From positions 110,484,001 through 110,548,000 of the forward strand of contig OX597817.1 of assembly GCA_951406725.2 (NCBI GenBank): 64,000 nucleotides of DNA, written 5' to 3'. The notes below the pieces were generated by a model. The model saw nothing but the letters and a program-made list of their open reading frames with translations. It did no database searches and was not told the DNA's origin. The first letter of the stretch is position 1. Every line of letters begins with the position of its first letter. The DNA comes from Octopus vulgaris. Taxonomy: Eukaryota. This document shows, piece by piece, positions 13,908 through 63,382 of this stretch. A program made the position numbers and the translations under genes.

Positions 13908-13948
13908 GCTACAGACGTTTCAGGGTTGTTGCCCCTTATCAATGCAGC
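13908..13948 (-). ncRNA. Minimal type I hammerhead ribozyme (U3-A8 core variant)
   Basis: Minus strand GCUGCA UUGAUAA GGGG caacaa CCCU GAA ACGU C UGUAGC: stem I, core, stem II, palindromic ACGU stem III, GUC cleavage triplet. Confidence 0.8.
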
Positions 13949-14325
13949 GTAGTCAGACTTGCAGGTGTCGCTACTGATCATCCCAGTTTGAAGGCTTTAT
14001 TTAGCTAGTTTCAGTGGAATACATCCACTTGTTTTCAATAATACAAATATTAAAATTACTAAGTCTCTCTAAAGGAGATTACGGCAGTGTTACTGGAAAT
14101 TAATAGTTATCGCCATACTAATTTATATACTTATATTTATAAGACTGCCATATTAGTATGGCGATAACTATTAATTTCCAGTAACGCTGCCGTAATCTCC
14201 TTTAGAGAGACTTAGTAATTTTAATATTTGTATTATTGAAAACAAATGGATGTATTCCACTGAAACTAGGTAAATAAAGCCTTCGAACTGGGATGATCAG
14301 TAGCGACACCTGCAAGTCTGGCTAC

Positions 14326-14366
14326 GCTGCATTGATAAGGGGCAACAACCCTAAAACGTCTGTAGC
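14326..14366 (+). ncRNA. Minimal type I hammerhead ribozyme, second copy (G12A, probably inactive)
   Basis: gctgca ttgataa gggg caacaa ccct aaaacgtc tgtagc; GAAA mutated to AAAA. Confidence 0.7.
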
Positions 14367-14532
14367 TATCTGACTGGCAGGATGAAGTGGCTGACCTCCC
14401 TTGTTCGAAGGTTTATAATGGACGCAGTTTGTGTATCAAATAGCTAGCTTAAGGCGATGGCCTCATGAAGCTAATCAGTGACAGCTTTAGTCTTATATTT
14501 ATAAGACTGCCATATTAGTATGGCGATAACTA

Positions 14533-14582
<50 letters not shown>

Positions 14583-15340
14583 TACATGCATGTATGTATA
14601 TAGTTTATTAATTTAAATTACCACTTGTCTCTCTTCACCTTTACATTCATTTCATCCCCCCTCTCTCTCTCTGTACATATAGTACAAGCTAATGAAGGAA
14701 CCCCATTATAGTTATTAAACAGGCTAAAAATAGCAAACAAATTCCCCTAAACAACATGCTGTTGTTTAGGTCTTATCATTTAAAACTCCCACCTCAAGTC
14801 AGCCCTGATTGAGCAAACCTGTTATTAAAAGCATCATAGCCATGATTATTCCATTTTCCTTTGGAAAGAGAAGCCAAAGCTAGACTTTGTTCTTTTCTGA
14901 GATAGAAGGATGTGACTTGAAGGAGATTAGCTGCTTTTTCTCATATCAAACTATCACATAGCAGATCCCTCATGGGTTTGTCTGATTTGTAGTGCGTAAG
15001 GGCTGATGGCAAATAGTCAACAGAGAAGGAACTATCAGCTGAAATGCTTCCCAATATCCATTTCAGACATACAAAATTTTAAGTTTGGATTTCATCCAAA
15101 TTGATATCCATTCATCTGGGTTATAAGAAGTATTAGCAATTTTCTGAGATTCATTACATTTATTATATTCTCTCATTTACTGAAAAATATTTTGGTTAGG
15201 CAAGGATTAAATTAGGCAAAAAAATATGTTTTTAAATAAACTGACACAATCACTGTATTAAATATGTGGATGTGTTGATAATCTTCTTACTTAATTGAAA
15301 TTGTCTCTGACAGAAACCTGAAAATATAGATTTTAATTAC

Positions 15341-15572
15341 GCGCAATGGCCTAGTGGTTAGGGCAGCGGACTCGCGGTCGCAGGATCGCGGTTTCGATTC
15401 TCAGACCGGGCGTTGTGTGTGTTTATTGAGCGAAAACACCTAAAAGCTCTACGAGGCTCCGGCAGGGGGTGGTGATCCCTGCTGTACTCTTTCACCACAA
15501 TGGCGGTGCCCCAGCATGGCCACAGCTCAAGAGCTGAAACTGGAAAAATAAAAAAAAAATAAATAAAAAAAA
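15341..15572 (+). mobile_element. Young tRNA-derived SINE with A-rich tail
   Basis: A box tggcctagtgg, B-box-like ggtttcgattc, CpG-rich. 3' tail ggcggtgccccagcatggcc..ctgaaac is shared with family A. Confidence 0.85.
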
Positions 15573-15629
15573 AATACTACTTTTCTTATTTCCTTCTTTA
15601 AGTAGTTAAGATCCGTACTTAATATTAAT

Positions 15630-15803
15630 TTTGTCCATGCTGGGCATATGTTCTGAGTACAGATTCTACTGAGGTCAATTTTGCTTTCATTCTTTCGAAG
15701 TCAATAAAATAAGTACTAGTTGAGTACTGAGGTTGTTGTGATTGATTTAACCCTCCTCCCCACTCCGAAATTGCTGGCCTTGTGCCAAAATTTGAAACCA
15801 ATA
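15630..15803 (+). mobile_element. SINE family B
   Basis: gttctgagt...gaggtcaattttgctttc...ggccttgtgccaaaatttgaaacc. Confidence 0.7.
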
Positions 15804-17078
15804 TTAAATATGTGGTTAAGGATTTACTGTGATTGTGATAGAGATATGAACTTGTGATATGTTGTTGTTGTTTAGACACTGGTCAGGCTTTACTGGGGAC
15901 ACCTATGATCAAAGGCATTCTGACCATGATCAATCTGTCTTTCCCTCAAGTATTATGAATCTTGGACTACATTATTCAATATGCCTCCTTTTTCCTTTCA
16001 AGAAATTAGAGTATATTATGAGGGAAATTCAGCTGCTGCTATTTCTGGCAGGTTGAATGACCACATAAAGGTGCCAATGTTGTCTTGTATGGAGGAGAAA
16101 AAGAGGATTCAGCAGACTCAGTTTCAATCTTAACTGAGGTTTCATTAGCAACTGCTCACCCATATTTTATTATCCATGATAGTACTGTCATCATCGCTGC
16201 CACCACCACCATCACCATTGCTGTCGTCGTCAGGCATTTAAAGTTCTATAGTTAAGTATAAAGCACCTAAGAATTGTTACTGCATTATTTAGTTATAGTC
16301 ACAGAAACATTGATGCATTTTACCACCAAAGAAGAAAGTAGCATCTGGCTATTATCACTTAGCATAAGATAAAAATAAGAATTAAAATATTAACAATGTG
16401 TAAGAAAATGAGGGCAACATATTTGGTTAAAAAAAGGTAATAGTTATTTCAGAAGAAACAATTTCTGATTATATAAGAAGCTGAAAAATAAAAAAAAATA
16501 AATGAGAATTAATTATGTCACAGAAGTTTAAAACCTAACATGACAGCAGTGAGAAATACATTTACAGATAAGATGAAAAACAAAAGTGTACAAAGGTAGA
16601 AGAAAATTCCCATTCTTAAAACTGTGAAATTGCTTATGAAATCTTATGAACAAGTAGGTTTATATTTTCATCAATCTAAAATTATACAGAATAAGATCTT
16701 TTTTCTTATTCCACAGGTCTTCAAAAGCACTGAGACACCAATTGTAATGTTAATGGTTTTACACACCTACACACACATGAAAGATTTCCATGCAGTTTCC
16801 ATTTCCCAAATTCACTCCCATGGCATTGATCAACCCAAGGCTATAGTAGAAGACACTTGCCCAAAGTACCACAGAGTGGGACTGAACTCATTACTATGTG
16901 ATTGTGAAGAAACCTTCTAACCACACACTTATGCCAGTTCTTAATGTGTATTACTTCAAAAAGATCTGTCTTGGAAACCAGAATTATCTATGTGAAATAT
17001 ACAATATGAGCATTTATAGACATATTGATGACAAATGAGAACATATGATGCTCATTACTTTCCTTCAATGACATCAGT

Positions 17079-17337
17079 GATAGAGTTTTAGGCGCATTAC
17101 CCCAGGATGGTTCAGCTCTCCATCTGTTAAAAACCACTGTTTACGGAATGAGGATAACAACGTAGTTCTCGCGCCCATGCAACCGCCAGTCTATCGCGTA
17201 TGGTGGGTGGATCTTCAAGTTGCCTCATGCATTCTTAGTAGGCTCAAATTAGAGATTATTCTTTGTGGCTAATGGTCTGAGTCTTGATTGGAAGAAGAAG
17301 AAGAAGAAGAAGAAGAAGAAGAAGAAGAAGAAGAAGA
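17079..17337 (+). mobile_element. CpG-rich retroposon 3' fragment with (GAA)n tail
   Basis: GC/CpG-rich island ending in a long (GAA)n run; possible TSD gacatcag/gacaacag. Confidence 0.5.
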
Positions 17338-17569
17338 CAACAGCAAAACACCACTAGTAGCAGTAACAACAAGAAAATAACAGCAATAATAGTAATAGCA
17401 AAACCAATGACAACACTAGTAGCAACAAGTCAACATTTTTCACTAAAGTATTAACACTCATAGAGTTGCAATCTTTTAGGTATACAGATTAGAAATTTAT
17501 TTTCTTTCATTGGCATTCTTGAAGAAGAATATATTAAATTTTATGATTTACATTTTATCATAATCTCAT

Positions 17570-17925
17570 TCTTTTATTTGTTTCAGTCATTTGACTGTGG
17601 CCATGCTGGAGCACGGCCTTTAGTCAAACAACTCGACCCCAGGACTTATTCTTTGTAAGCCTAGTACTTATTCTATCAATCTCTTTTGCCAAATCACTAA
17701 ATCATGGGCACATAAATACACCAACATAAATTATCAAGCGATGGTGGGGGACAAACACACACACACACACACACAATGGGCTTCTATCTACCAAATCCAC
17801 TCACAAGGCTTTGGTCGGCCCGAGGCTATGGAAGAAGACACTTGCCCAAGGTACCACACAGTGGGACTGAACCCAGAACCATGTGGTTGGTAAGTGAGCT
17901 GCTTACCACACAGCCATGCCTGTGC
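17570..17925 (-). mobile_element. SINE family A
   Basis: Reverse complement of 13056-13460. Other partial copies at about 2965-3175, 16780-16935, 19005-19165, 23265-23430, 55370-55530 and 56750-57078. Confidence 0.85.
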
Positions 17926-19732
17926 ATACATTAAAAAAAAAAAATTCATTTCCTTATATTTTTTTGCTTAATTCTTCTACAAATATTATGAGGAAGAAAT
18001 CCTTACATGCCATAATATTGTTAAAAAAATCTTTTTATTTGTAAAGATTTCATCATAACACTGACATGTTCGGAATTTTCAAATGTTTGGCTGAAAGAAA
18101 AAATAAAAATAAAATAAAATAAAATAAAAAATGCAATGATCATTTTCAAACATGTATCTTCTATTTTACTAGCAGCACATGTATGCACATATCATGCAGA
18201 TTTGTTAATTACATAACTCCATCTGAAATAAATCTTTTCAGACCAATTTGAGAGTCTCTATTGTGGTTGCTCAATTGATTAGCATTACAGCTAAATCTCC
18301 CTCAACTGCGATATTCTAATGTTTTTTTTTTAAAAAAAGGACGTTAGATAATGTGGTCCTGAATTTGTTGTACAAATATGGGGTGGTCATAACTGGAATG
18401 CTTTTGATCATAGGTCTGCTCAGCCACAGCTGACAGCAGCTAAACAAAAACAAATAAGTTTGTGCATGTAAATATACTTAAACCTATTTTAATTTTTATT
18501 TTTCAAGTCAAGCAGAAAAGCAGTACTCATGATATGTTACAAGGCCCCCAAGTGTTTTGGGAGGGAGACAGGAAGTTATTCACTCACTGAAAATCTGGTC
18601 TAAATATTAGCAACTGAGTGATCTCTGCTAAAAGCACTCAAGTTGCCAGGGGTGGGTATTTTCAGCTGGGTGATGGGTAAAGTAGTGGTTTTCAACTATT
18701 TTTTTACCTATAGACCCTTTTGATCACTCTTCTTTTCTGGTGGATAGCCATTCGATGTTTATAAACTAGTTTTATAGATACCTCTTTTAAAATTCATACT
18801 TTGCTTTTCAAACATTAACTTGTGTAGGTTGAACTATGTAAAATATCAGAGAAAAAGATCTAGCTATTTCTTGCAATAAATACATCTAAAGCAAACATTT
18901 TTTTATGTTGAGTACAATTAAAGTATAAACTATATGTGATATTTATGCTTTTATTCTAAATATAAATATATTACAAGCATTAAAAAATATATAAACACAT
19001 ACAACAAGCTTCTGCATAGTTTCCATCTAATAATATCATTCACAAGTTATTGGTCAACCCAGACCTATAAGAGAAAACATTGCCTGCCCAGAATGTTATG
19101 CAGTGGGACTGAACCTGAGACCACATGGTAATGGAGCAAACTTTTTAACCACACAGCCATACTTGCTTCATAAATTTCAACAGATTTGTTTTCATTCAGG
19201 TTACCTTGTTATTGATCCTTTGCCTTATGAGTTTTCTAACTTAATCAAAAGAAGTAATTAAGTTCATATGTTATCTAAAGGTCAATCCTGATTGTGAAGA
19301 CCTGTGATCATCTTGGATTTGCCTAATGTGTCACCCTGACTGAAAAAATTTCATCCAACTTCATGTGCAAATTAAAAGAGAAAGTGTCAGTTAGGTGTTA
19401 CTTTACAAAATACTTGATTCTTGTAAACAAGTCAACCACTCTCAGTTTGAGATGGCAACTTCAAATTTATCAAGCAGTACATATAGCTTTCCTAATATTG
19501 TTCCATTTCTTAGCTGCTGTTCATGAATCAACAGCTAACTTCTTATTATTCAAATGTAACTTAGTCATTGAATCAAGGATTTCCCCACTTCTTTCAATAT
19601 CTTTTGCCAAGGCCACATGTAATTTCATTTCAATTGTAGTCAGTCTTCCCTTCTCATTACAAAATGCTTATGTGATAAATTTGCTGATTAAAATGTATAT
19701 GTGTATTAATTTAGAATTAATATTTAATAATA

Positions 19733-19733
19733 A

Positions 19734-19827
<94 letters not shown>
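19733..19827. repeat. (AAT)n microsatellite
   Basis: Visible perfect repeat; source of the poly-Ile ORF. Confidence 0.95.
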
Positions 19828-20379: not shown

Positions 20380-21130
20380 TCAATAGGGAGATTATTGAAA
20401 TGTTGGAGCAACGCCATGTTGATGTGTGTGGTGTGCAAGAAGTAAGATGGAGGGGAGTCTCAGCTAGATTCCTCATAGGTGAGAGATGAAGATACAAATT
20501 CTTCTGGGTTGGCATGAGGGATGGAGTGGGTAGTGTAGGCATAATGTTAGCAGAAAATTGGGTAGATAAGGTAATTGAGATGAAACTTATCATAATTAAC
20601 AGTTATAATTGGAGAAGAAATTCCAGGTATGGAAGCAAAACCTGGAATCAAAGGGCTTTAAAGTTAACTTAGCAAAGACCAAAGTTGTTCTTAGTAAGAA
20701 AGAAGATAAAACATTCTTTCCATCACATAAATGGCCCTGCTCAATATGTAGGAAAGGAGTTGGAAGAAATTCCATTCACTATACCCAGTGTAAACTATGG
20801 ACACATAAAAGATATAGTGGAATCACAGGTAGATTAACAGATAAAGTAGTGTTTGTATGTGGCAGATGTGTAGGAACAAAAAGCACTAAGAGCGCACAGG
20901 ACTTAGATTCTCTCAAATGCCCAGGAGGCTCTCTCAAGGTTGTAGATAGTTTCTGTTACCTAGGTGACCAAATTATCAGTAATGGAGGATGCTCTGAAAG
21001 TATTATTTCTAGAATAAGAATAGGGTGGAGGAAATTCAGAGAGCTATTACCTCTGTTGGCAACAAAAGGACTCTCTCTCAGAGTGAAAGGTAGACTATAT
21101 GATGCTGGTGTATGAATGACTATACTCTGT
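20380..21130 (+). pseudogene. RTE-clade LINE remnant: APE endonuclease N-terminus joined to RT C-terminus with a PHD-like Cys/His insert
   Basis: EIIEMLEQRHVDVCGVQEVRWRG..A (APE motif), then LESKGFKVNLAKTK, WPCSICRKGVGRNSI..TQCKLWTHKRYSG..FVCGRC, VDSFCYLG and KGRLYDA. Confidence 0.85.
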
Positions 21131-22091: not shown

Positions 22092-24096
22092 ATTTAGTGA
22101 TGAAATCAATGTAAAGTAAAAAGTTGTAACTTTGATCATAAATAATGAAGTCAAAGAAATTGAACTAAGTCATGATCAGTAAACTCAATGGGCTACAAGT
22201 TGTGACATTACCTTGGTAACAAACAGGATATGATAACTTTAGCAGCTATGAGTATCATTCATATATTAACATTACAGTTTCGTCTCCTTGCAATAACAGA
22301 CCTTCTGATTATTTGTTTGAATTTAAAACCAGGAGTTGCACAGGCTAAATAGTATAGCCTGCTGAAATTTAAGAGAATTGTTTTATAATTTTTATGAAAT
22401 ATGTTTATCTGGCTGTTCTTTAAATTGTTTTGGAATCAACAGATTAAAATATATGGTAGTCAGTTGAGGAAGTATATTATAACAGTTAAATTTTGAAACC
22501 TTACATTGGCGGCAAAATATAATTTGAAAGGCTATTAAAATAACATCATTTGTAAATGCTTTAATTTTGAAAATTATTTTGAAATATTGAGCCTGTATAG
22601 GCTTACATTAAATGCAAGTTAGGTGGTTTAAGCTTAGAAGCTGTTAGATTCATTAACAGTCATATACAACAGGATGTCATGCCAGTTCTGTGAATTGCAT
22701 TACGAATAATGCTTATGATACCTAATATTGTGGCAATGGGAAAGATGCTTTAGTAAACTAAAGCTTATAAAAACATATTCACAGTTGTCCATGACACCAG
22801 ACAGATTAAATTCTTTGCCTGAATTTTCAATAGGAAATGTTATTGTATAACAGATAGTTAGAGAAAGTGCTTTAAAATATTTACAGATCTAAAACAGAAA
22901 AATGTTTTTAAGATAATGCGTTGTTTTCAACATCTGTTCTTATGTTCATATTTAATTTTGACAAGAAAATACATTACATCTACAGGAAATTAACGGCACC
23001 CTTTAGGCTTTACCATTTACCCGCCTATCAGTGTCTGTCTGCAAGAAAAATGTGTCAAGTTTATTGGCAGTAATATAGATATGGTCTCTGTCTGTTTTTC
23101 TCTCTCTGTCCTTCTCTTCCTCCCCACTAGTTACATTAATGAAAGAATTTGAAACCTTGATGTTTTGTGACTTCACTGCAGTGTACATTGAGAGGTTTCT
23201 CTCTGATCCCACAATCAGTCATATTTGTTGTATTTCAATGATCAGTTGTGTGTCTCACATTCTTTTATATACTCTTTACTCTTTTACTTGTTTCAGTCAT
23301 TTGACTGTGGCCATGCTGGAACACCGCCTTTAGTCAAGTAAATCGACCCTAGGACTTATTCTTTGTAAGCCTAGTACTTATTCTATCGGTCTCTTTTGCC
23401 GAACCGCTAAGTTACGGAGACGTAAACACACATACAGATATGTATATATTTTTACATATATACATATAACAAATATCTTCTCAGTGACTGAATGAAAATT
23501 GCAAAAATAAAAAATAACATATGATATAAAAACTAAGATATTTGATATGTTGTCCAAAAGCTCTCCCATGCAGAACATAATTCTGAAGTTCAGCTCAGTG
23601 CAAAATATAATCAAAATTTGGCTTATTGGGTTCCTGAAAGCATTTACCAAAACATAATGCATATATCCTTGAAAAGAAAAGCAGTAAATACATTGTGTTA
23701 CATGTGTATATATGTATGTATATATATCATTAGATAGTCTAATATATCATATTACAAGATTATAGTTTATATTAATGGATTCTCAATTCAAAATGGTATG
23801 TATTTTTATTTAGAAGACAGAAAAACTTAAACACAAGGTTTGATGTGAAATGCTTCAATTTAAACAATCAAAAAGGTAATACTTCCAGAACATTCCTGTT
23901 ATAAATGAAATAAAGGAAAATTAAAATGTTGATCCTGCAAAGAAAAGTGGTTTCTTTAAATAAATGTAGAGTGGATATTATAACTCTCCAGTGTCTGATA
24001 ATGTTTAAAATAATATGAGATATGATCGAACTTAAGCCATGGTGACCCATCAAAACTGTACTAGCATAGAAGAGTAGATGTAAAAATGATAATAAT

Positions 24097-24305
24097 GGTT
24101 TCAAATTTTGGCATAGGCAAATGATTTCGGGGAAGGGGGCAGGTCAGTTACATTGATCACAGTGTTCAACAGGTACTTATTTCATCAACCCTGAAAGGAT
24201 GAAAGGCAAAGTTGATTTCTGTGAAACTTGAACTCAAAATGTGAAGACAGATGAAATGCTAAGTGTTTTGCTCAGTATACTAATGTTTCTACTAGTTTGT
24301 TGCCT
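24097..24305 (-). mobile_element. SINE family B
   Basis: Reverse-complement match to the family B monomer. Confidence 0.75.
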
Positions 24306-26220: not shown

Positions 26221-26610
26221 GGCAGCAAGCTGGCAGAATCGTTAGCATGCAGAGCAAAATGCTTAGCGGTATTGCGTTCGTCTTTACGTTCTGAGTTCAA
26301 ATTCCGCCGAGGTCGACTTTGGCTTTTCATCCTTTCGGGGTCGATTAAATAAGTACCAGTTACGCACTGGTGTCGATATAATCGACTTAATCCGTTTGTC
26401 TGTCCTTGTTTGTCCTCTCTGTGTTTAGCCACTTGTGGGTAGTAAAGAGATATTTCGTCCGTGTATATATTTTTGAGTTCAAATGCTGCCGGGGTCGACT
26501 TTGCCTTTCATTCTTTCGGAGTCGATAAGTACCAGTTTAACACTGGAGTCGATGTAATCGACTAGTCCCCTCTGCCAAAATTTCAGGCCTTGTACCTATA
26601 GCAGAAAATA
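26221..26610 (+). mobile_element. SINE family B, dimeric form, CpG-intact
   Basis: Same architecture as 3965-4360; approximately 17-bp TSD ttatta(a/c)ctcaga(g/t)aaa. Confidence 0.9.
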
Positions 26611-27252: not shown

Positions 27253-29605
27253 CAGTGGTTCCCAACCATTTTTCAGCCCAGGAACCATTTTTTACTTGAA
27301 AAACTTTCAAGGGACCACTTCTACTTTTACTTTATGCTGTTCTATTTTCACACTAAGATACTTAATGAAAAGACAAAATAGTCTATTTACACTTTAAATT
27401 ATATTTTAGCAAACAAAAGATAAAATTTTAAATGTGTTTTAGTAAACAAATATAAACACAAGATATCAAAATCATTTTTCATAAAGTCGTTCATTTTTAG
27501 TTCATTCAGCTAATGACTAGCTTGATATTGGTGTTTCTGACACAAAATATGATAATCAATTTTAATGAGCTCATTTAGTCTTAGTCTGATAGTTCCTCTG
27601 CTGTTGACATCTAATTTATTTCTTTTTCTACTTAAATTATCTACAACAGCTGAAAATGCAGATTCCACCATCCATGTGGTAGAGAAAGAAATGATGCTTG
27701 CTTCTACATGTCGAAAAATATTTGGGTATGAGTCCTTTATCGATATGTAGGCAAAGACACCTTCTTTTGCAACTCTTCTTCTCAGTTTCATATTCTCTTT
27801 CAAATCTAACAACATTTCAGCCAACTCAAAATTTTCATCTCCTGGCTCATAATTTTCTAGGTCTATCTTTAATAAATCATTGTATCTTCCCTCAAAGTCT
27901 ACATGAAGACCTTCAGGAAGGGCAATGCATTCTGATGTAGGAACTGTGGTGTTAAAATTTTGAAATGATGCCAAAATTTACTTTTTAAACTGTTTTTTTT
28001 CCAAAATTTTAATTTCCCCATATACCCTTTTATCTTCTGAGAACAGGTGACCAAATCTGATTTTCTACCTTGCAGCTCTAAGTTAAGCAGATTCACTGTT
28101 TAAAAAATATCACTCAAGTAGAATATTTTTGATTTAAACTCAGAACGTCTTTCCAAAACAGCTTGCTTCTTGAAGTTGTAGTGAGTCATCTGACTCTTGA
28201 ACACGAGAAAGTTGATTAATGGTTCCCATAAATTCACTAGTCTTTCAAGGCTCAGGCCTATTAACAACCATCTTACTTCTGTGTGAAGCAATAGGGTTTT
28301 TAAATCTTCATCTTCACAGAATTGCATAAAAAAATCTATTATTCCCTGAGTTTGATTTGACAAAGTTAATTGTATAACTGGCAGTGTTGAGCACTTCTTC
28401 AATGTGTTCTCCAATATTCTTAGCAACCTGTCTGTGGATAATGCAATGTATATAAAAAATGTGAGGAGCAACTGATTTCATTCTAGAAACAAAGCCTTTC
28501 ACTTTTCCAGTCATGGCTGCAGCTCCATTTGAAGAAATGTTGATTAAATTAGTCGATGAAATATTTTTATCATTAAAATACTTCAATTAAAATACTTGAA
28601 TATGTCTTCTCCATTAGTAGTTTCAGACAAACTTTTAATGAATAACATTTCTTACCTTATATCATCTTCATGGGTGAATCTGACATAGACCAGAAGGATA
28701 GCTTGGTTATGAATTCTGCTATCATCAATCTTGATAGAAAAATTTGTCTTTTGGAGAACTTCCACAATCTTCTCCCCAACAAAATTAGATATTTCATCCT
28801 ATCTTCTTGTAATTGTGTTATTTGAAAGTGGAATTGTACTCAGAGTAGATGCAGCACCTTTTCCCAGAATCTCATTTGCACAAGCTATCATAGCAGGCTT
28901 GACAAGTTTCTCACCATAAATCTGAGGTGCTGCAACCTTGGCAATAATTTCAGAGACAAAATAACTTAGTTTGAATGTCTTTACTTTTTCAGTCGGGTAG
29001 TTTGATTGGCTGTATTTTTTTTTTTATTCTCAAAATATTCCCTACCTTTACCAACAGATGATGGATGCTTCAATTTCTGGTGCTGTTCTAGCTTAACTTC
29101 CTTCAAGGAATGATTTGTCATGATAGCATCACATTCAAGACACATAAGTTTTGAGTCTACAGATACAAAACCAAACATGCTAAAATCTTCTTTGTAGTTC
29201 CTCAGTTTTACCTTTTTAGCAGTTGGTTCAGACATTATTACAATTGATCTTAAAAAAAATAAAAATAATAAATACTTTATTTCTATAAATTAAAAGTATC
29301 AAATTTATTATTAAACAATATTGTGTAGGGATCTATTAATAATGTCAAATTTATTATGAAACTGTTGTGATTGTAAAATGTAAATTATGTAATTCTTGTT
29401 TGTAATATATTATTGATTATATATTATACATTATTGATTCTTATGGAATAATTATTGAATTTTGTTTTCTTATTATTATTCTGTCTTCATATAAATTATT
29501 ATTAACTAACAGTGTCTTCATTATCAAGCAATTTTATGTAGATCTAAAATGGCTTCTATTTGTTTATGGCTACGAATTCTCTGGGGACCTCGTTGGGAAT
29601 CACTG
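27253..29605 (-). mobile_element. Full-length hAT (Buster/Charlie-type) DNA transposon, 2353 bp
   Basis: TIR cagtggttcccaac / gttgggaatcactg; perfect 8-bp TSD TGTTAAAC at 27245-27252 and 29606-29613; internal transposase. Confidence 0.95.
27510..29235 (-). pseudogene. Frameshifted Buster-type hAT transposase (ZBED5/FAM200-like)
   Basis: BED-finger-like CLEC..H..H, then SSNGAAAMTG, HCIIHRQ, LLLHTEVRWL, LNLELQG and dimerisation-domain FSTTWMVESAFSA, spread over several frames. Confidence 0.9.
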
Positions 29606-32390: not shown

Positions 32391-33436
32391 CAACAAATTT
32401 AGCCAATCTTGACTTCATGTGGAATAGGCTGCAGTGACTATATCAACTTTTGGCATGCGCCTTTCAGTTTATGAAATGACACACACACATGACATGACCT
32501 AGAGAGCTTTGGGAGGTAGGAGAAATTATACAGCAAACAGACAGGGGCAGTGGTTGAGCTGAGCTAATATCATTATAGCAGACTACCAGCAGAAACACAA
32601 TGACTAGCTGTAACTTTCCTAATACTATCTCAGTTACACCTATTTCAATAACATTCAATTTCTCTCAGCATTTATCATAATACTATTTCAATAACATCCA
32701 AACCCTCTGAACAAGAAATAAAGTTTGTTCATAAAAATCTTAACAAATTTCATCATTTTCAATGTACAACTGTTGACCTCCAATACTAAAAATAACAGCC
32801 AACTCCCAGCATCAGCAGTCAATTGGTATCAACAAATAAAAGCCATTGGGGTAATCTGTACAGAGGAAGTTGATTTTAGTAGTAGTGTTGACTGACGGAA
32901 ATGATTAATTATCAAAGGTGAAAAACCAAAAAAAAACTTTAAAAGCATTCTAAATTTGAAACTAAACTGGAAATAGTACCACTACTAAACACAATTTCTG
33001 TATATGCATTACTCCGTAACGTGTGTTTGAGAAGCTGTAAACAGTGAAAGTGATTATCACAATACAAAAACTTCCTTCCAAAAGTTCATATTGTTCTGTT
33101 TTTTTAAAGATTTTAAAAATATAATTAATAATTTTTAACTTCAGAAAATTTTCCTCAAATATTCTGACTGTATCAAGAATTCTTTACAAAAACTTTATAT
33201 ATAGTATTTACTCTGAAGAAGTTACAAAATGACTCAAAATCCCAAAGTTTTGTGTGTTTGCACTTACCAAATTTGTTTCATGCATTGAGAGAGAGAGGAA
33301 GCAGAATTTGAACTCTGAACATAAAGTTGGAATAAATGTTGTTGAACATAGTACCCAGTGTGCTAACAATGTTGCCAGCCATGAGGCAGCATTTATAAAA
33401 TAAAATAATAATGTGTGTGGATTGGATAATCTGTGA

Positions 33437-33890
33437 ATATATTCAGAAATGGACATCTATTAAACATACTTGCCTGGTAAATAGACATTGTAGGTAAGCC
33501 ACAAGATTAGCTTTGCAGGTGGAACCCAAGAACAGTTCGACTAGTTTCGAAAGATTACTGCTGTTCACAGTATCTGTGTATACAGAGAGAGGATGAATGT
33601 CTGCTTATCAGCCATACATATGTGAACTTCTTCATCTGCACATGCGTGCATGCGCGTACACACACACACTGTTCCAGTTGTTATTTAATAGTCAATAAAT
33701 ATACTGATACATAACACATTTATATGTAAATTCAGTGTCTGTTGCTCATAGCATTTTTTACATGTTACTCTAGGACTCGTGTAGACATTGTTGATAAGCT
33801 AGCAATAATGAAATGAAACTAGTCGACCTGTTCTTGAGTTCACTATGCAAGGAGATCTTTGTAGTTTAACTCCTAGGTTTATTTACTCAA
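33437..33890. mobile_element. Decayed Penelope-like/retrozyme inverted pair
   Basis: GAAACTAGTC on minus (33539-33548) and plus (33815-33824) with similar downstream sequence. Direct repeat tagacattgt at 33482 and 33782. Degenerate core CAGATGA on minus at 33632-33638. Confidence 0.5.
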
Positions 33891-35275
33891 CGATGCTAAA
33901 TGTATGTTTATCAGTCATCCATATGTGAATAAGTGGATGATTAGCCAATCACTGTCTCAGTATTTCAATTATAATATTTTCTGTTTATTTGTACTATCAA
34001 TGACTTTTTTTAATCTGGGGGAGTCAAAGTCAAGTAGTAACATATTTAATCAACTAATATCCCCCTTTAAGAATTTTAAGATGTCACTCTTGTTTTTGTC
34101 ATATTCATTTTGTCGGCTGTGGTGAGAGAGGGTTTCATCTCATCATCTCATAGCTGAATAAAACTCCAGGCCTATTATTAAAACATCTTGGTTAAATATG
34201 TTCACTCACTTTTTAGTTGTTTGGGTACAGGTCAGCTTTGATTAATAAAACCCATAAAGAAAGTTCAACCGTGATTATCCTATCTGTTTATCAAGGACTG
34301 CATTGCTCAGTAACTTTTTTAAAGATGTCAGAGTGTAACTTGAGACAGATTTTGGATGCTATTTCTAGCATGTCGTGTAACTTCATAGAGGTTCTCTCTT
34401 TGACTCTTTATTTAGTTTATGAATCATCATGCAGCAATTATCCTCTTTCTGCATTGTACCCTACATATCTATCTATCGTTTTATCCAATTTGTCCGCTTT
34501 CTTTTATTGTTTGCACTCTTTTATTCTAACTTTTCTTTCCACCACCCAGTATCTCTCTCCTCCTTACCTCCTCTCCTTGCATTCATTTTTCAAGATTTTT
34601 TTCAGTTATTTTGTATTACCAGTCTGTTCATGAGAAATTTCCCCACCCATATTTTTCATAGTTTCACTGTTTATTCAGACTTTCTGTCACCTGCCTAGTC
34701 TAACTAAACGTTCAACATATTAAACTTCTAATCAATTAGAGCCTCTTTCAGCATATCTCCCTTTCACAAAGTTTCCTGTTTTCTCTCTCTGTTATTCCTC
34801 TCTTTTAGTAAGCATCTTTCTCCCCCCCCCCCCGTCTTCTCTATTAGTAATACTCTGCCTTACTTCCTTTCTCTTTCAGTATCTCCTCTCATCTCCACCT
34901 GTCTCCCTTTTCTTCCTCTGTCTCAGTTTCCCAGGCTTCCTCTTTGACACACTTTCTCATCTTCCTTTACTTTCGACAGTCAATCAGTCCCTTCCTTAGT
35001 TGTCTTTTAGTAGCTTTTACTCTTCTCAAATCTTTGCCATGAATCTTCAATAGTCTACTTACTTCAATTTCTCTCTCTGGAACCACTTTGTTTTCCACTC
35101 ATTAAAACTTATTCCTCAATTACTTTCTATGTAATATTGGTACAGTTATTCTTTCTAGTTAAAAAAAAATATATCATTTTTTTTTATATCTAATGTGTTC
35201 AGCATTGCTTTTTATTTTACAATTTTTCTTTTAATGTTTTGAGAATTAAAAGAAAAGTTATTGCTCATCATAGAG

Positions 35276-46950: not shown

Positions 46951-49439
46951 AAAGAATAATGTGAAATTGTTTTTATTTAAACTCTTAAACTAGGATGCTT
47001 TAAATGAATTTAGTATTTGCTAGATTATTCTGATTTCAAATCTAACCAGAGTTAACCTTTGTTTCCATCTTCCTCCAGTCTTGATTTAAAAAGCTGTACC
47101 AGTAATATACTTAGAAAAAATTCAGCTGATTATATTTGTCTAACAAAAGAAATATGTAGAGCTTAGAATAATTCATTGTATTTATGGGTGTTAGAGTGAT
47201 GTAAAACACAGATGTTGATATCAAATGTAAATGAATAAATAAAGTTAATGCCTCTGCCTGTAAAAATGTTATCTTTTCTTTACACACCTGATCCTGAAAG
47301 CTAGGCAACAAAAGAATCAGTAATTTTTCCCTCCATCTGATAACAATAGAATTGGCTGTCACCTTTTTATTGTAAGGTATTGAAGAAAATCAATAGTCCT
47401 GCTGTAAATACAACTACACTGCTATTCAAGTAAGAAAAATTTTTGTTTGGTAGAGGATTCTAGATATTTCCTGGTGCCAGCTTTCTATAGGAAAATGCAG
47501 CTAAGATGGATAGTGGTCTTTTTGGGTTTTTTTTAACCAAAGAACATTATATACCCTAAGCTGGTTATTTAAAAAAAAAACAAAAAATCTCAACTGGTTA
47601 TTTAAAAAAAAATATAAAACTAAAAAAAAAAATGAAGTGAAATTTTTAAGGAGTATACAAGTTATGTTTTAAAGAATTTCAAAAACAATATTAGGAATAT
47701 AAATTTCTGTAGAAAATTTAAATATAAAGAGAAATATATTTATTAATTTTATATGAATGGAAAGTTAATAGAAGTGTTAAAATTGGGCTTAAAAATTTGC
47801 AATGCTATTCCTTTTCATTTTTACTATCTTATTTTCTTTTTTTCTAACACATTCATTCATGAACTGAAAAAATGGTTTTAAAACTGAGAAACATTTTAAC
47901 TGAAGGTTAAAATAGCATTTGTAAATAATAACAAAACTTTTTATTAACATTTTCTTACAACAAACTGTTTATTAATGAAAATATTCTTTCATAAACTAAC
48001 AGAAATAGAAGAAAAAAAAAAGAAAGAAAAACTTTGAAGCTATTTTATGCTCAGATGTATGTCAAGTTTATTCTCTCAGAAGGGAATATTTCTTGTTGAC
48101 AGAGCAGTTTCTGTGCTTTTATTGTTGATCTTTTAATAAAGTTTCACTAGAATTTTAATTGATGGTTGTCATGTAACTAAGTGCAATATAAAAATTAAAT
48201 GTTATTTTGTTCTCTGCAATACATCCAAATATACACTAAGCTGCTGTGAACATCTTGTATGATCTTTTAGAAGGATTCATGAAGATAATTTACCTGGATA
48301 CTAAATTCTTTGGTTTAAATTTATCTTCTGGTGGTATAATTATCAATTAGATTCTTATCAAACATGAATTAACTGCATCGAAGATGAAAGAAATGTTTCA
48401 TTGCTTGCAGAATGCACCGGTTTTTCAACCTTTATTAAAGACTATGCAGCTAAACTAGTTGGTAGAAACTCAAACTGCTAGAAACAATAAGCTACAACAC
48501 CCTCAAATTTCATCTTGTTGTCTTTAAAAAAAATCATGTTGGACTGCTGGCTGGAATGACTATAATCAAAGGTTTTCTCTGACTTGGACTAAACAAGCTA
48601 TTCAGCTAAATGAGCTAATTAGAGAACCTCTACATGGACATTTTAGAAACAATAACCTGCTAGAAATAATAGTCAAATAACACTCTGTTGTCTTTAAATA
48701 AGGAAAGGATATAGTTTTACACATTCCTGAAAGGATGAAATAGTTGTGGCCAGATTACCTTTTGATCAAAGGTTTGCTTTGCTGGATCAGAGCTGATATG
48801 AGGCTAAACAGTACCAGCAATTATGCAACTAAATCCTATATCTTAATATGTGATGATCTTTACTAATCTTTACTAAATAACTAACTGAAGGCTGTTATGG
48901 TTTTTTTGAGCTGCAAAAGTGAAAATAGTGAATTCCATGAGTAAGTGCTATTCCTGTTGTCAAACAGTCTAATGAATAAGAATGGATTTATATTATGAAG
49001 ATTAATTGGTCAACATTGCTTTCATCCCTCCTGGGGTCAATAAATGAATGTGCTAGTCTAATACTGTGGTTGACTGTATTGGCTAACTATTCCCCTCAAA
49101 GCTGCTGATCTTTTGCATAAATTAGAAACTATTCTTAGGATTAAGCCTGGTTATTGTCATACCATTGATGTTATTTTGTTTTTCTATCTTGTCCTTACAC
49201 CTTGATCTATCATTATCATAATCAGCAGTCCTTTTAACTTCAGCATCCTGAATAACCTTTCTTTCACAGCTATAGTACTCTCATTATTTTCATTGTTCCT
49301 CAAACACCATTAATACTAGCTTACCCTTCATGAATTGCTTCCTTATCACCTTATTTATTTTTCTTCTTCAAAGCACTCGTTGTTCTCTGACATTAATTAT
49401 ATATAATTATCCCTCCCCACTGCTCACCTCAGTCGTGAC

Positions 49440-50771: not shown

Positions 50772-52290
50772 GTCCTGTGGTGGCAGGCTACGGATAACAG
50801 GGACAGGCCTTGGTGGAACTGGAAGTCTCTAGTGCCTATCCTATACATAGGTGGTGAGCATGTGATGATCGCTCAATCAGAGACCTTGTTGCAACTCCTT
50901 TGGGTGGTAGCTATGTTCACGACTGGGCTGGCCTATTTAGGATTCCTGCTGCCCACCTTGAATGAGGAAGGCCTTGAATGAGGTGGGCTAAACATCAGAT
51001 GTCGCAACTCTACTTGACTGGAAAGCTGCATTCAGCGGGTCACCCATTCTGCAGCCGAAACACTATAATGAACTTTGCTACTTGGAATGTTTGGACACTA
51101 CTAGATCACAAGGACACAAATCGACCTGTCAGAAGAACAGCCCTCATCACACACGAACTGAGCTGTTTCGGTGTGAACTTTGCAGCTCTGAGTGAAACCA
51201 GGTTCTCAGGGGAAGGATCACTTGAAGAACAAGGTTCTGGATATACGATCTTCTGGAAAGGAAAGGAGCCTGGTCAACCTCATATGCATGGTGTGGGTTT
51301 TGCAATCAAGACAAAACTCATATAATCCTTCAGTCTGACTCCGTCTTGCATCATAGAGAGAATCATGTCCATCCGAATTCCTCTCTCAACATCTTTCATC
51401 ACTATCTTTTCCATCTATGCTCCAACACTGGATGCTGAGGACAACATAAAGGAAGAGTTCTACAATCAACTTGACCAACAACTCACAGCTGTCCCCAGTT
51501 CAGACAAAATTCTCCTACTGGGTGACTTCAACGCAAGGGTTGGCAGAGACCATCATCTATGGGAGAAGGTTGTCAGGAAAGATGGAGTCAGGAACTCCAA
51601 TGCAAATGGACATCTTCTTGGACTGTATTCTGAACACAAACTTGCTATCACAAACACCTTCTTAAGGCAGTGGAACTGCTTCAAGACTATATGGCAACAT
51701 CCCAGATCCAAACATTGGCACCTCCTAGAATATGCCATCACAAGACAATGTGATCTCAAAGATGTTCTGATCATTTGTTCTATGCTATCTGCTGATGACT
51801 GTTGGACCGACCACCATCTGGTTGTTACGCAGATAAGATGGACTCTGAAGAAGAAGACATTCCCCCCAAGATCAAATCCACCTCCCCGGAGGAAGTATGA
51901 CACCACTGCCCTCCGAGACCTCCAGAAAGTCTGTCTTTTTCAAGAGTCTGTCAAAAAGAAGTTGAATGAAAACCCCCCATGTGACAGCTCTGAGTAGACT
52001 ACGCTCAAAAACATCATCACCAAATCTGCGAGAGAGAACATGTTTCCAAAAGCGATCTTATGCAGACTGGTTCAACTCAAATAGTCTTGAAATCTCTACC
52101 CTGATTGATGCCAAGCGATCGGCACTCATTGAACATCTGAACAACCCCTCATGTTCCACGAAACTTGCCAGATTCAGGGAAGCCAAGTCACTCTGCCAAA
52201 GAAGGATTCACGAGATCGAGAATCAATGGTAGCAAGCCAAAGATGTCCAACTCCAATCCTTTGCTGACAGCCATGACATGAGGAACTTTT
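50772..52290 (+). mobile_element. RTE (BovB-like) LINE: 5' UTR plus APE endonuclease, lacking RT and 3' end
   Basis: MNFATWNVWTLLD..RPVRRTALI..EL..AALSETR, YAPT, LLGDFNARVG, WQHPRSKHWHLLEY, CWTDHHLV; stops and frameshifts. GC-richer leader from 50772. Confidence 0.9.
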
Positions 52291-59857: not shown

Positions 59858-60034
59858 GTATATGTTGCTAGTTTGTTAAAAATCAATATAAAAATTATAG
59901 TATGGATGCTTCTGAAAATTTTACTATTTTGCTATATCCTAACATAAACTAATCAACTGTTAAACTATCTAATTTTCATCTATATTGATTTCAGCAAAAT
60001 TTGATTCTCTGCCCTTTAGGGCTAGGGTTAGTGT

Positions 60035-60225
60035 AAGGCCTGAAAATTTGGGAGAGGATGCTAACCAATTACATCAATCCCAGTGTTCAGCTAGTACTTA
60101 TTTTATCAACCTCAAAAGGATGAAAAATCAACTTTGGCAGCATTTGAACTCATAATGTAAAGCCAGAAAAAATGCTGCTAAGCATTTTGTCCAATGCAAT
60201 AATGATTCTACCAGCTTGATGCCTT
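60035..60225 (-). mobile_element. SINE family B
   Basis: Reverse-complement match to the family B monomer. Confidence 0.7.
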
Positions 60226-62211
60226 CTACTCTTTATAATACTAAACATTATAAACATAAATTTGAAATCCACTATTTCTCTTTTCTGTTTTAAATTTCTT
60301 TTTATAATCTCTAATGTTATTTACCTTAAAATCTAAATTCTTAAAATTATAACCCTGCTCATTATGATAGGAACTAAGTACTTTAATCCTTTAGTCACTG
60401 TACATTTTCTTTTATTGCCCAAACATGGCTATAGGTGCCGTGCCATTGCTGTGTGAATAAGAAGTTTATGCTGAAACAATGTAGTCAGGGATTCAGTCCC
60501 ATTCCTTTGACATTGTTGGTTAGTTCCTTTTACTATAATTATAGGTTGACTAATAACTCATGAGTGAAATAGGTAGTCAGAAACTGGAAACAGTTTAGTG
60601 TGTGTGTGTGTGTGAGAGAGAGTGAGAGAGAGAGAGAGAGAGCATATATGTGTGTGTTTGTGTAAGTGTATGTATGTGTGTGATTGTGAGTGTTCATATT
60701 TCTGCTTAATTTCCTGTGTTCACTGACCATAAACAAAGATTTCACTTTTCATACAGACAGTGGTAACATTTGTATGCAGTATTCCACAACTGTATGTCCA
60801 GGTTTTCCTAACATATCTTGACATATGTGATCTTTTCGTAAACAAAATCTTATTCAAATAGTGTTATTTGTTTGTAGTTTTGTGTGTAACCATGTCTGAG
60901 CTCTTCATTCAACAGATTTGGGATTAATACCTTGCATGGAAATAGTTGACTGTTGGTGACAGGAAGGGCATCCAGACTTAGAAAATTCTGCTCTAACATC
61001 CACTTTTCACTGTTTGTATGAAAAAAGTAGATGTTAAAATAATAATGATGATGTAAATGTTTAAATAATTTGCTGATGTACCTAACTGATAAAAGAGCAT
61101 CTTGCAATAAATTCTGAGTCATGAGGCAAAATATGACATTTATGCTAGTAGTTTCCTAGTTGTTTATACACATCAATTAAGCTGCAGAAATATCTTAATA
61201 ATTCATCAAATAAAAACCAGAATCTTTTTAAAAAATGGTGGTCTGCATTGACAATAGTTATTTATTAATTTTAGTTTAGGTTGTATGCATTGGAGAGACA
61301 AGAATATTGATAGAAAAAAGCAAAAAATAATATATATATAGAAATACATTTGAATTGTTTTCTCTTCCACAAAGTTTGGCTCAAAATATCAGCACTCAAG
61401 TTACCCTCCATGAAAAACAAAACTTATGCAAAAATGTGAATTTTAATAATTTGTGTTGTTATTGTAAGGATATATTTTGTAAATGTATGCACTTGTGCTT
61501 TGATAATATATAGTGCATATTATAAAATAAAATGCATGTATAGTATATATATATTTATATCTGAGAAATAACTCAGAATTAGCCAAAAGCATATATTTGA
61601 ATAGCATAGACAAAAGCTAGTATGTTAGATTCATTCAAATAACATAAATTCTTGATTTATCAAAATTATCTTCACTGTTAGAGGATGTGTCATAATTATA
61701 AAATGGCGATTGAGACCAGCTCCATTTAAGAAAGGAAGATAATCTTAAGAATCAAGAATTTCTCCAAAATGCCATGAAGGAAAAAGTCAAGATTATTGTC
61801 TAGAGATAAGAGAGCATTTATGGATAAGTGCTTCTGGTTCAATATCTGTTGTCAGCATCACAGAACTGCCTCAAGTTCCACTATTAATTTGATACTGTGG
61901 GATGACCATAGCTGAAATTGTGATATTTGATCACTTTATAGAATGTTTGAGTGTCAGTTTGGTGTCTGGAATGGAATAGCTTACCTCATGGGCAGGTTGA
62001 AGCTCTTTAACCTTGGTTGGTAACCTACCTAGGAGAAGAAAATCTCCGAAATAAAACCTGAAGCCTTGGAAGTTCTTGCTTTTGTCAATTTTCACGTCAC
62101 ACCGGCGAAAGTCTTCTTGGGCCAATAGGTGGGGGTAGTGCAGTGCAAGCTACACTATCTGTGGTTGGAAAGGTTCTTGCCTGCATTTTGTTAGAACTTT
62201 TAAATACCTTC

Positions 62212-62274
62212 ATATATATATGTACATATATATATATAGATATATATATGTACGTATAAATACATATATATATA

Positions 62275-62324
<50 letters not shown>

Positions 62325-62373
62325 CATATAAATATATATCTAAATGTACATATAAATATATATGTACATATAT
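62212..62373. repeat. (TA)n-rich microsatellite
   Basis: Visible simple repeat. Confidence 0.9.
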
Positions 62374-62556
62374 ATCATCATCATCATTTAATGTCCTTTT
62401 TCCATGCTAGCATGGGTTGGACGATTTGACTGAGGTCTGGCGAACCAGACTCCAATCTGATCTGGCAGAGTTTCTACAGCTGGATGCCTGTTAGGTTCTA
62501 AGTTCACAGCTGAGGCGTGAGCTAGGATCCATGTTAGGCTTCTGTGTTAGCATGTA

Positions 62557-62940
62557 TATATTAGAGGAAATGGACAACAAAAACCAAAGCAGGACAAGTA
62601 TCTCAAGTCATAATAATTGAGGGTAAGGTGAATTTGAAGTCTTACAGCTGTTTCGAGGATATCTCAAGTGGTAAGGCTAGGATGTCTGTACACTTGGTAT
62701 TCTATCATCAGAGACAAGGTGTGTATGTATGAAAGTTCCATACAGGGAAATTCGCAGTTTATAAGGAATAAAATAGAAGAATAAAGAGTAAAAGCTGATA
62801 GAAGAATACAGATAGGAGAATAAAGTTCACAGTTCATTTTTCCAGAGAGTATGGAGGTTGGTCTGTACTTTCATGGAGGTATAAGCCCTTAAGTATAATC
62901 CCAGGTAAATCCAGGCAGTATTTTGAATGATGCATTCATG
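62557..62940 (-). mobile_element. Penelope-like/retrozyme-type unit (family 3)
   Basis: Contains the hammerhead at 62639-62715. Left end atatatt..gaaatggaca resembles that of the 33437 element. Inner boundary approximate. Confidence 0.6.
62639..62715 (-). ncRNA. Type I hammerhead ribozyme with long stem II
   Basis: Minus strand GUCU CUGAUGA uagaauac-CAAGUG...CACUUG-agauauccuc GAA ACAGCUGU A AGAC. Canonical core, palindromic stem III, GUA triplet; base of stem II partly decayed. Confidence 0.8.
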
Positions 62941-62945
62941 TTGAA

Positions 62946-63382
62946 GTAGGTATTTCCAATACTCTAGTCACTAAATGTGACAATTATAGTTTTCCTTTTT
63001 GGTTAAACATTTCAAACTGCTGTCTATTTTAATTTTATGTATACACATTAGCGATTTGCTAAATCATCCATAAATGTCTATGATGGAAACATATATACAG
63101 GCAGAGAATTAAGTCTGAAAATCTACTGAAGTAGAGCCAATCCTTATTGATGAGGCAACAGAAATTGCAGAAACTGAATTCAGTATAAGGAATTTTCGAA
63201 TGGCATTTATGGATGATTATAGTCTCCGTCTGTGTATATATATATATACAATTATGTGCTTTGACAACAGGATTAGAACATTTTAGCTCTCTTATCTCTA
63301 GCAATGTAGGTGTTTCTAACACTTTAGTCACATTTAGTGACAATTATAATTTTCCTCTTTGGTAAAACATTGCAAACTACTA

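Follow-up and report, generated by a model that had tools for sequence, protein, structure and literature searches.

Candidate type I hammerhead motifs with palindromic stem III sequences in short non-coding repeats of Octopus vulgaris

Six sites in a 64,000-nucleotide stretch of Octopus vulgaris DNA (the window) are, with high probability, type I hammerhead motifs carried by short non-coding repeats, which are likely truncated ends of Penelope-like elements or their non-autonomous derivatives (retrozymes). The sites lie at 14 kb (L1a and L1b), 33 kb (L2a and L2b) and 62-63 kb (L3 and L4). These hammerheads are of the published Penelope-like element and retrozyme kind, so that the observation is for the most part unremarkable: a class already well described gains four previously unrecorded sequence families. 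Five of the six motifs appear to carry damaging or likely damaging changes, and only L1a is fully intact. The preference for pairing within a family is likely a by-product and not an evolved family code.

When the window was scanned for the hammerhead core together with a stem I of at least 4 bp and a palindrome, four sites were found against 0.27 in shuffled sequences, and none of 60 shuffles reached four. With a C-containing palindrome, the same scan gave three sites against 0.03 (0/60 shuffles), namely 13942 (-), 62711 (-) and 63147 (+). Allowing one core mismatch in the window added a single site, 14332 (+), in which A replaces G12, and the 33-kb copies, which fail the strict scan, still failed. 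Scan matches at 47380 (+) and 3850 (+) look like chance. Besides the six sites, no further copies of the four families were found within the window, and no hammerhead family was among its 28 Rfam matches (E up to 1). The type I core YUGANRA...GAAA...UH with a 3-8 pair is present in L1a (U3-A8) and L3 (C3-G8). A junction closed by stems I and II is present in L1a and L1b and also in L4, there behind a G.A mismatch; the closure is weak in L3 and lacking in L2a and L2b. Rod folds surround L1 (z -7.3) and L4 (z -4.6) and are reached by 0/60 shuffles, and the L2 and L3 regions fold no better than shuffles (z 0.4, -0.5 and 0.0).

Family 1 contains the intact copy. Its left arm (13653..14135, minus strand) comprises one 362-nt unit and about 130 nt of a second unit and joins a (TCTA)n/(TA)n tract at its 3' end. 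The right arm (14130..14537, plus strand) is 97% complementary to the left, comprises one 362-nt unit and 46 nt, and joins (TA)n at 14536-14602. L1a (13908..13948, minus strand), located at the tip of the long rod, has a 6-bp stem I, the core UUGAUAA at 13936-13942 (a U3-A8 variant) and a 4-bp stem II, followed by GAAA, the loopless palindrome ACGU and C17. L1b (14326..14366, plus strand) is like L1a except for A in place of G12 at 14353; because G12 is the general base of the hammerhead (PMC6155905), L1b is predicted to be inactive.

At 62-63 kb, two unrelated families, 3 and 4, abut head to head at a seamless junction (62945/62946). The family 3 element (62500..62945, minus strand) is multi-copy and 5'-truncated at about 62945; by contig depth, contig pieces cover 62554-62942 and loose ends fall at 62946. 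Its hammerhead L3 (62639..62715, minus strand) has a 4-bp stem I, an intact core CUGAUGA at 62705-62711, and a 3' part consisting of GAAA, ACAGCUGU (2 bp and an AGCU loop) and A17. The base of its 50-nt stem II region is weakly paired in this copy; the majority contig letters give three consecutive pairs there. The family 4 element (62946..63399, plus strand) is a 360-nt unit between two direct repeats of about 98 nt (62946-63043 and 63306-63399, 80% identical), followed by (TA)n. L4 (63141..63191, plus strand) has a 6-bp stem I, the core UUGAUGA (U3.G8, with C3 at position 63147 in 88-91% of the depth of related contigs), 4 bp of stem II behind the G.A mismatch, and a 3' part consisting of GAAA, ACUGAAUUCAGU (4 bp and an AAUU loop) and A17. 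We dropped the idea that the mismatch represents decay, since published rows carry an extra base before GAAA; it is absent from the majority contig changes listed (40 of 223).

In contigs from sequencing runs, families 3 and 4 are multi-copy in four organisms. An 896-nt stretch has 2,567-3,408 matching contigs per run, and 26-40 contigs have (TA)-ending loose ends at 63378 in three of the four runs shown. The initial suggestion of a large ribozyme population in this genome is thus borne out as far as many hammerheads are concerned. Pattern matches to the family 4 motif at 17 metagenome loci were rejected as chance; 14 of them fall in one shared sequence context, none has a 4-bp stem I (by eye) and none is similar to the four elements (blastn).

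The palindromes of 4, 6, 8 and 12 nt reported in the initial annotation are all present, with correct letters, at the six sites. They are ACGU at 13915-13918 (-) and 14356-14359 (+), identical in both copies of family 1; ACUAGU at 33540-33545 (-) and 33818-33823 (+), identical in both copies of the 33-kb pair; the 8-nt palindrome of L3 at 62644-62651 (-); and the 12-nt palindrome of L4 at 63173-63184 (+). By themselves, palindromes are not above chance. GAAA followed by a palindrome and H gives 98 rows within the window; palindromes of at least 8 nt after GAAA number 8 against 5.8 in shuffles (15/60 shuffles reach 8), and those of at least 12 nt number 1 against 0.37 (18/60 reach 1). All six sites fit the GAAAN-palindrome-NUH consensus of PMC4209133 Fig. 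S3.

The surrounding repeats resemble Penelope insertions, which target (TA)n and carry an inverted, 5'-truncated partner (PMC8557442). The units of family 1 (362 nt) and family 4 (360 nt) have terminal redundancy, the sites form opposite-strand pairs at three loci (432, 267 and 516 nt apart), and (TA)n tracts border locus 1 on either side and follow family 4. The full anatomy of partial tandem, inverted 5'-truncated partner and (TA)n target is complete at locus 1; family 4 has the partial tandem and (TA)n, and locus 2 the inversion only. No RT or GIY-YIG Pfam match was found in 111 frames (at least 45 aa) around the three loci, so that the link to autonomous Penelope elements is by anatomy only. 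In Pfam overall, 3/123 frames matched at E up to 0.01, none of them Penelope-like. There are no tandem multimers of any unit within the window, the arms holding 1.1-1.4 units.

Metazoan Penelope-like elements have been described with hammerheads of the U3-A8 core, palindromic helix III and many families per genome (Cervera and De la Pena 2014, PMC4209133). Opposite-strand pairs 100-700 bp apart occur among them, and most published copies are solitary; Fig. S3 of that work contains helix III palindromes of 4-10 nt, ACUAGU among them, as well as rows with an additional base preceding GAAA, and that one genome can hold different palindromes was already on record. The octopus sites are alike in type I topology, U3-A8 core, palindrome after GAAA and an extra base flanking the foot of stem II on each side; they likewise comprise several families in one genome, with opposite-strand pairs in the same range of spacing and mostly solitary non-coding copies. 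The 4-, 6- and 8-nt types all have counterparts there, ACGU and ACUAGU letter for letter. However, the window copies have no adjoining ORF, the stem II region of L3 is 50 nt long, and one opposite-strand pair consists of two unrelated families. The 12-nt palindrome also slightly stretches the range, 10 nt being the longest among the 56 published rows compared. A hammerhead of a complete Penelope element would be expected in a pseudo-LTR beside an RT/GIY-YIG ORF, and no such ORF was found at the window loci (0/111 frames).

The elements are also similar to animal non-LTR retrozymes (PMC7229834; 10.64898/2026.07.22.740005), which are Penelope derivatives (10.64898/2026.07.22.740005) and have units of 350-390 bp in mussels (PMC7229834). 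Both have GC-poor non-coding units (360-362 nt here) that each carry a single type I hammerhead, pair strongly with themselves (families 1 and 4) and occur as more-than-unit copies. Indeed, families 1 and 4 each correspond to a retrozyme-like unit, which is non-coding, self-paired, about 170-400 nt long and equipped with one type I hammerhead. However, non-LTR retrozymes are defined as tandem repeats, whereas the window has an inverted arrangement and no same-strand hammerhead array; solo retrozyme monomers have been described (PMC7229834; 10.64898/2026.07.22.740005). Retrozymes are further characterised by expression as linear and circular RNA.

We propose that the source element would be transcribed as tandem units. 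Where the palindrome has 4 or 6 nt, a pair of hammerheads on one RNA would share a palindrome-paired stem III and cut, as published work suggests; the 8-nt family probably cuts via paired hammerheads in the same way, and the 12-nt family is computed to be able to cut as a monomer as well. Judging from the anatomy, (TA)n tracts would receive copies of the RNA made by a Penelope RT-endonuclease acting in trans, and insertion would leave more-than-unit-length copies and an inverted 5'-truncated partner. Each lineage would keep a palindrome while its spelling drifts, because a sequence can form stem III with an identical copy only if that stem is palindromic, and poor cross-pairing between families would then be automatic. 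By analogy, this agrees with the initial statement that minimal hammerheads cleave as dimers, the sites matching the published minimal or short-stem-III type I kind that works as a dimer. The double hammerheads of newt satellite 2 and avocado sunblotch viroid (PMC6155905, PMC4209133) are comparable in that a weak stem III is rescued by two-copy pairing. However, both copies are on one RNA in these systems, whereas same-family copies in the window never share a strand; they lie on opposite strands and face away from each other, so that dimerisation on one transcript is impossible here. Palindromic RNA dimerisation signals such as the retroviral DIS and oskar (PMC7357161) also join like RNAs through a self-complementary loop or duplex, but they act between separate molecules in packaging or transport, and the window gives no sign of such a role.

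Stem III length might in addition act as a dial between monomer and dimer cutting, and not as an identity tag. This is compatible with the proposed mechanism, and we regard it as a serious possibility that falls a little short of even chances. Stems of 4-6 nt would be dimer-only (multimers cut, circles protected), 8 nt would be borderline and 12 nt would work alone. A monomer hairpin is impossible for ACGU and computed at +5.3, +1.4 and -2.8 kcal/mol for the 6-, 8- and 12-mer, the hammerhead fold of L4 (-8.3) comes close to the minimum (-9.3), and two axolotl families differing in helix III strength show 6% versus 22% monomer cleavage (PMC7229834). However, the energies are nearest-neighbour estimates on isolated stems, not kinetics, and the two long palindromes are represented by one copy per family. 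Dimer use of the 12-mer is still conceivable, since its AAUU loop is a palindrome too (probability 0.076 by chance, given the base composition of the window). The literature has yet to settle what the hammerhead does in Penelope elements, and several families with graded stem III length offer handy material for comparing monomer with dimer cutting and same- with mixed-family pairing, for which no test was found in the literature searched.

The 33-kb pair could be an old inverted repeat that holds GAAACTAGTC by chance and represents no hammerhead family, but we consider this unlikely. L2a (33528..33582, minus strand) and L2b (33783..33833, plus strand) are inverted and 74% identical over 72 nt. 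Both fail both scans, their regions are without fold signal, and GAAA is followed by further C-containing 6-nt palindromes at 52046 and 56377, where there is no core. However, L2b keeps the core letters UUGAUAA (33791-33797) 17 nt ahead of GAAA (33815) and the sequence GAAA-ACUAGU-C, with stems I and II unpaired (by eye). L2a has GAAA-ACUAGU-C and a broken core, with CUGUGAA at the corresponding place, and retains 5/7 stem I pairs (read by eye). Moreover, a CARUAAU loop is common to both, the geometry of the pair matches loci 1 and 3/4, and ACUAGU occurs as helix III in a published row (Adineta, PMC4209133 Fig. S3). We thus infer that L2a is a decayed hammerhead. The four hammerhead families of the initial annotation are indeed four mutually unrelated sequences, but the one at 33 kb can be called a hammerhead by inference only.

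It had also been proposed that the distinct palindromes restrict pairing to RNAs of the same family. This holds in computation, the homodimer stem III being 5.2-16.1 kcal/mol better than any heterodimer, even for the weaker homodimer (nearest-neighbour estimates on isolated stems), but an evolved code is not supported. Such a code, in which selection would have made each family's palindrome unlike those of the other families in the genome and thereby limited RNAs, separate molecules included, to pairing, cleavage and perhaps insertion with their own kind, is improbable. It would fit the four different palindromes of four families in one window, and L2a and L2b share 12 identical letters around the palindrome despite their overall divergence. 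Contig depth peaks at the L3 palindrome bin (run X1: 66,513, next bin 6,463), and no palindrome position of families 3 and 4 is among the majority differences listed (40 of 223), although chance alone would leave all 20 palindrome positions free of the 40 differences in about 40% of cases. Computed for separate strands at 1 micromolar, duplex formation is favourable at 8 and 12 nt (-4.6 and -3.3 kcal/mol) but unfavourable at 4 and 6 nt (+5.4 and +2.3 kcal/mol).

A code is unsupported because this set does not exceed random palindromes in orthogonality: 478/500 random sets were equal or better, and 182/500 with the second letter fixed. Moreover, in PMC4209133 Fig. S3 the same palindrome recurs in different families in 8 of the 11 genomes that have at least two rows (our count, from a search that favoured 4-nt forms), and 4-nt A..U palindromes have only 4 spellings versus 4-16 hammerhead families per genome in print. 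Further arguments against it are that the 12-mer folds as an ordinary monomer hairpin, that every pair in the window sits on opposite strands, and that the dimers in print form between tandem copies within a single RNA, whose linkage already settles which family they belong to. Because AC..GU ends are common to all four palindromes, a heterodimer still forms two pairs next to each core. The elements of families 3 and 4 abut each other, and in one Penelope protein assay insertion did not need hammerhead cleavage (PMC11167929). By title or abstract, no printed family code or heterodimer test was found in the literature searched.

Finally, it is very improbable, more so than a selected code, that the longer palindromes (8-12 nt) serve as RNA-RNA addresses for two template RNAs, both copied by a dimeric Penelope protein, one from each end of a double-strand cut, to give the head-to-head pairs present at all three loci; same-family pairing would then be the rule and the family 3/4 junction a rare mixed event in one insertion. 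If true, the palindrome would do more than serve cleavage, and there would be an explanation for Penelope's characteristic inverted insertions.

The six palindromes that the initial annotation had assigned to four hammerhead families were found in place, each preceded by GAAA (AAAA in one copy) and followed by C or A. The initial observation was confirmed in part, and the identity of the sites as hammerheads was supported. One of the six copies is intact and one further copy is nearly so. The intact copy, L1a of family 1 (13908-13948, minus strand), has a 6-bp stem I, a U3-A8 core, a 4-bp stem II and a loopless ACGU. In its partner L1b (14326-14366, plus strand), an A replaces G12, the general base of the hammerhead (PMC6155905, in excerpt). 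In family 2 (ACUAGU, about 33 kb), neither copy passed either motif scan; by eye, the core letters persist in L2b although its stems no longer pair, and L2a has a broken core and five of seven stem I pairs. The family 3 copy L3 (8-nt palindrome; 62639-62715, minus strand) has an intact core, a 4-bp stem I and a 50-nt stem II region in which a 6-bp helix is the only one present in the centroid fold. In the family 4 copy L4 (63141-63191, plus strand), stem I has 6 bp, the core reads U3.G8, a G.A mismatch lies at the base of the 4-bp stem II, and the palindrome has 12 nt; in the minimum-energy fold, U3 is paired with the cleavage-site A. The 3' arm of L3 stem II (62659-62670) has a second copy at 62597-62611, about 30 nt 3' of the L3 cleavage site. 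This second copy could possibly compete for the 5' arm and give an alternative fold; related contigs carry extra letters nearby, between 62611 and 62620.

Because 98 palindromes follow GAAA in the window, this feature taken alone carries little weight. AT-rich sequence prevails in the window, with a GC content of 0.29-0.42 per 2 kb, and microsatellites and short dispersed repeats are abundant throughout. GAAA followed by a palindrome of at least 8 nt occurs eight times, where dinucleotide shuffling gives 5.8 (eight or more in 15 of 60 shuffles); for palindromes of at least 12 nt the two counts are one and 0.37 (one or more in 18 of 60). The combination of a YUGANRA core, a stem I of at least 4 bp and a palindrome is a clear signal above shuffles: four sites were found versus 0.27, and three versus 0.03 when the palindrome contained C, numbers reached in none of the 60 shuffles. 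Rfam gave 28 matches in the window at E up to 1, and none of them is a hammerhead.

At each of the three loci the two copies lie on opposite strands and diverge, with spacings of 432, 267 and 516 nt, and therefore no read-through transcript of the window would hold two sense copies of one family. Opposite-strand hammerhead pairs 100-700 bp apart are described in the excerpted text of PMC4209133, as are short palindromic helices III, U3-A8 cores and several families in one genome. No relationship among the four families was detected by blastn, and no copy of any of them beyond the six sites was found within the window. The 362-nt unit of family 1 occurs 1.36 times on the minus strand and 1.13 times on the plus strand; the arms are joined 5' to 5', are 97% complementary and are flanked by (TCTA)n/(TA)n on one side and (TA)n on the other. 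In family 4, a 360-nt unit lies between direct repeats that are 80% identical, and (TA)n follows the element. Both unit lengths compare with the 350-390 bp of mussel retrozymes (PMC7229834, in part). Families 1 and 4 fold into rods tipped by the hammerhead (z -7.3 and -4.6; 0 of 60 shuffles), and folding of families 2 and 3 was no better than shuffles. The far 5' and 3' parts of the family 2 units are self-complementary (33430-33470 and 33596-33626; 33899-33929), resembling these rods but decayed. Two adjacent perfect hairpins mark the family 1 unit junction (13749-13785, 14130-14163, 14489-14522); the inversion point of locus 1 lies within them, which suggests fold-back template switching.

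The (TA)n flanks of locus 1 and family 4, and the inverted pair of locus 1, correspond to the (TA)n targets and inverted 5'-truncated partners of the Penelope insertions in PMC8557442, a paper that regards the hammerhead role as unclear. Reverse transcriptase and GIY-YIG models had no Pfam match in 111 frames near the loci, and of the total of 123 frames, three gave weak matches to unrelated models.

At locus 3, the unrelated families 3 and 4 adjoin 5' to 5' at 62945/62946 with no spacer. Contigs of four runs among the 24 listed, each standing for one of the organism codes A-D, were matched to 62490-63385 at 80% likeness, a comparison covering families 3 and 4 alone of the four; each run gave 2,567-3,408 matching contigs. 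Both families are multi-copy: summed depth was about a thousand times that of long listed pieces at the L3 palindrome bin and about 50-70 times at the L4 hammerhead, values to be taken no further than "many" and "fewer," since summed depth is no copy number. (TA)n borders the pair on its right side, and (TA)n with a short repeat on its left, which resembles locus 1, and majority differences are similar in number in the two copies (21 and 19 of the 40 listed out of 223). A single mixed, chimeric inverted insertion is possible but the less probable reading; it would argue against RNAs being strictly sorted by their palindromes. The pair could also reflect a later insertion adjoining an older one, an arrangement called common in excerpts of PMC6765202; in the contigs, family 3 relatives run on into other sequence at 62945/62946.

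The same contigs differ from the window within the ribozymes. The majority letter at 63147 is C3 in 88-91%, unlike the U3 of L4, and five L3 stem II positions differ (62655, 62656, 62664, 62695, 62703). The change at 62703/62656 from A-U in the window to G-C in the unphased majority hints at covariation. None of the 40 differences listed out of 223 fell on a palindrome, GAAA or L3 core position; a zero in the 20 palindrome positions is expected by chance about 40% of the time, too often for it to demonstrate conservation. The L4 hammerhead bins are the shallowest of the family 4 element, related contigs being about 5-20 times deeper in its flanks (63090-63230 region), and several contigs match both flanks and skip the middle. 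Family 4 relatives may thus carry a different hammerhead or middle, as subfamilies.

The distinct palindromes had been proposed to restrict pairing to same-family RNAs. When the isolated stems were modeled with an A15.1-U16.1 pair imposed at each end, the computed energies were -3.1, -6.2, -13.1 and -17.4 kcal/mol for the homodimers (4-, 6-, 8- and 12-mer) and +0.2 to +3.7 for the six heterodimers, 5.2-16.1 kcal/mol worse than the weaker homodimer; like-with-like pairing is therefore predicted. However, orthogonality was no greater than for random palindromes of the same lengths (mean gap 10.4 versus 8.0 observed, 478 of 500 sets as good or better; 7.7 and 182 of 500 when C was required as the second letter), and a code is not supported. 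Stem III is self-complementary by definition, and the loop alone is free not to be. The 12-mer is predicted to close on itself at -2.8 kcal/mol, through 4 bp around a 4-nt loop, and the full L4 monomer fold is 1 kcal/mol less stable than the minimum. The 8-mer, with a loop closed by 2 bp, gives +1.4 and the 6-mer +5.3 kcal/mol, and the 4-mer is unable to close. For separate strands at 1 micromolar, no pairing is predicted for the 4- and 6-mers (+5.4, +2.3), the 8- and 12-mers could pair (-4.6, -3.3), and at 1 nanomolar none of the four clearly pairs.

Our literature search found no paper proposing a family code; a 2016 article in RNA Biology about dimer cleavage, possibly bearing on stem III lengths and heterodimers, lay outside its coverage. 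A paper covering palindromic RNA dimer signals does not mention hammerheads in the text available (PMC7357161). The supplementary alignment of PMC4209133 (56 rows, from PDF text with columns prone to slip) contains, in the part used, palindromes of 4, 6, 8 and 10 nt, including ACUAGU in an Adineta element, and different palindromes in a single genome (Aedes, CGCG versus GGCC loops). By our own count, 8 of the 11 genomes represented there by more than one row include at least two families with the same palindrome; the search behind the alignment favored 4-nt forms, of which only four are possible. Two axolotl families differ in helix III (PMC7229834, in part).

The sites are additional members of the known Penelope/retrozyme kind of hammerhead. 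Excerpts of other reports link dimer formation to tandem layout (PMC6765202), place both partners on one RNA (PMC6155905), argue for a Penelope origin of animal retrozymes (10.64898/2026.07.22.740005) and describe a Penelope protein, a predicted dimer, that cuts and extends both DNA strands, with hammerhead cleavage needing protein and dispensable for insertion (PMC11167929). The best reading, in our view, is that the elements would stem from Penelope-type elements, that their hammerheads would cleave as dimers in tandem source transcripts and that a protein acting in trans would insert them into (TA)n. The palindrome itself is best seen as the cost of being able to pair with an identical copy, while its spelling drifts from lineage to lineage.

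Other repeats are present in the window. Broken LINE-like frames lie at 50978-51994 and 20609-21112 (both plus strand), with an Exo_endo_phos_2 Pfam match at 51326-51994 (E 2.3e-05, below the curated cut-off). Fragmented frames at 27510-29289 (minus) and 63661-63993 (plus) resemble DNA transposase remnants, presumably hAT-like and mariner-like; their sole Pfam match is a weak zinc finger at 28984-29289. SINE-like short dispersed repeats of several families, with 3-7 copies each, occur at 404-479, 2965-3035, 4012-4333, 9924-10118, 13049-13448, 16794-17933, 23269-24256, 26269-26582 and 62374-62488.
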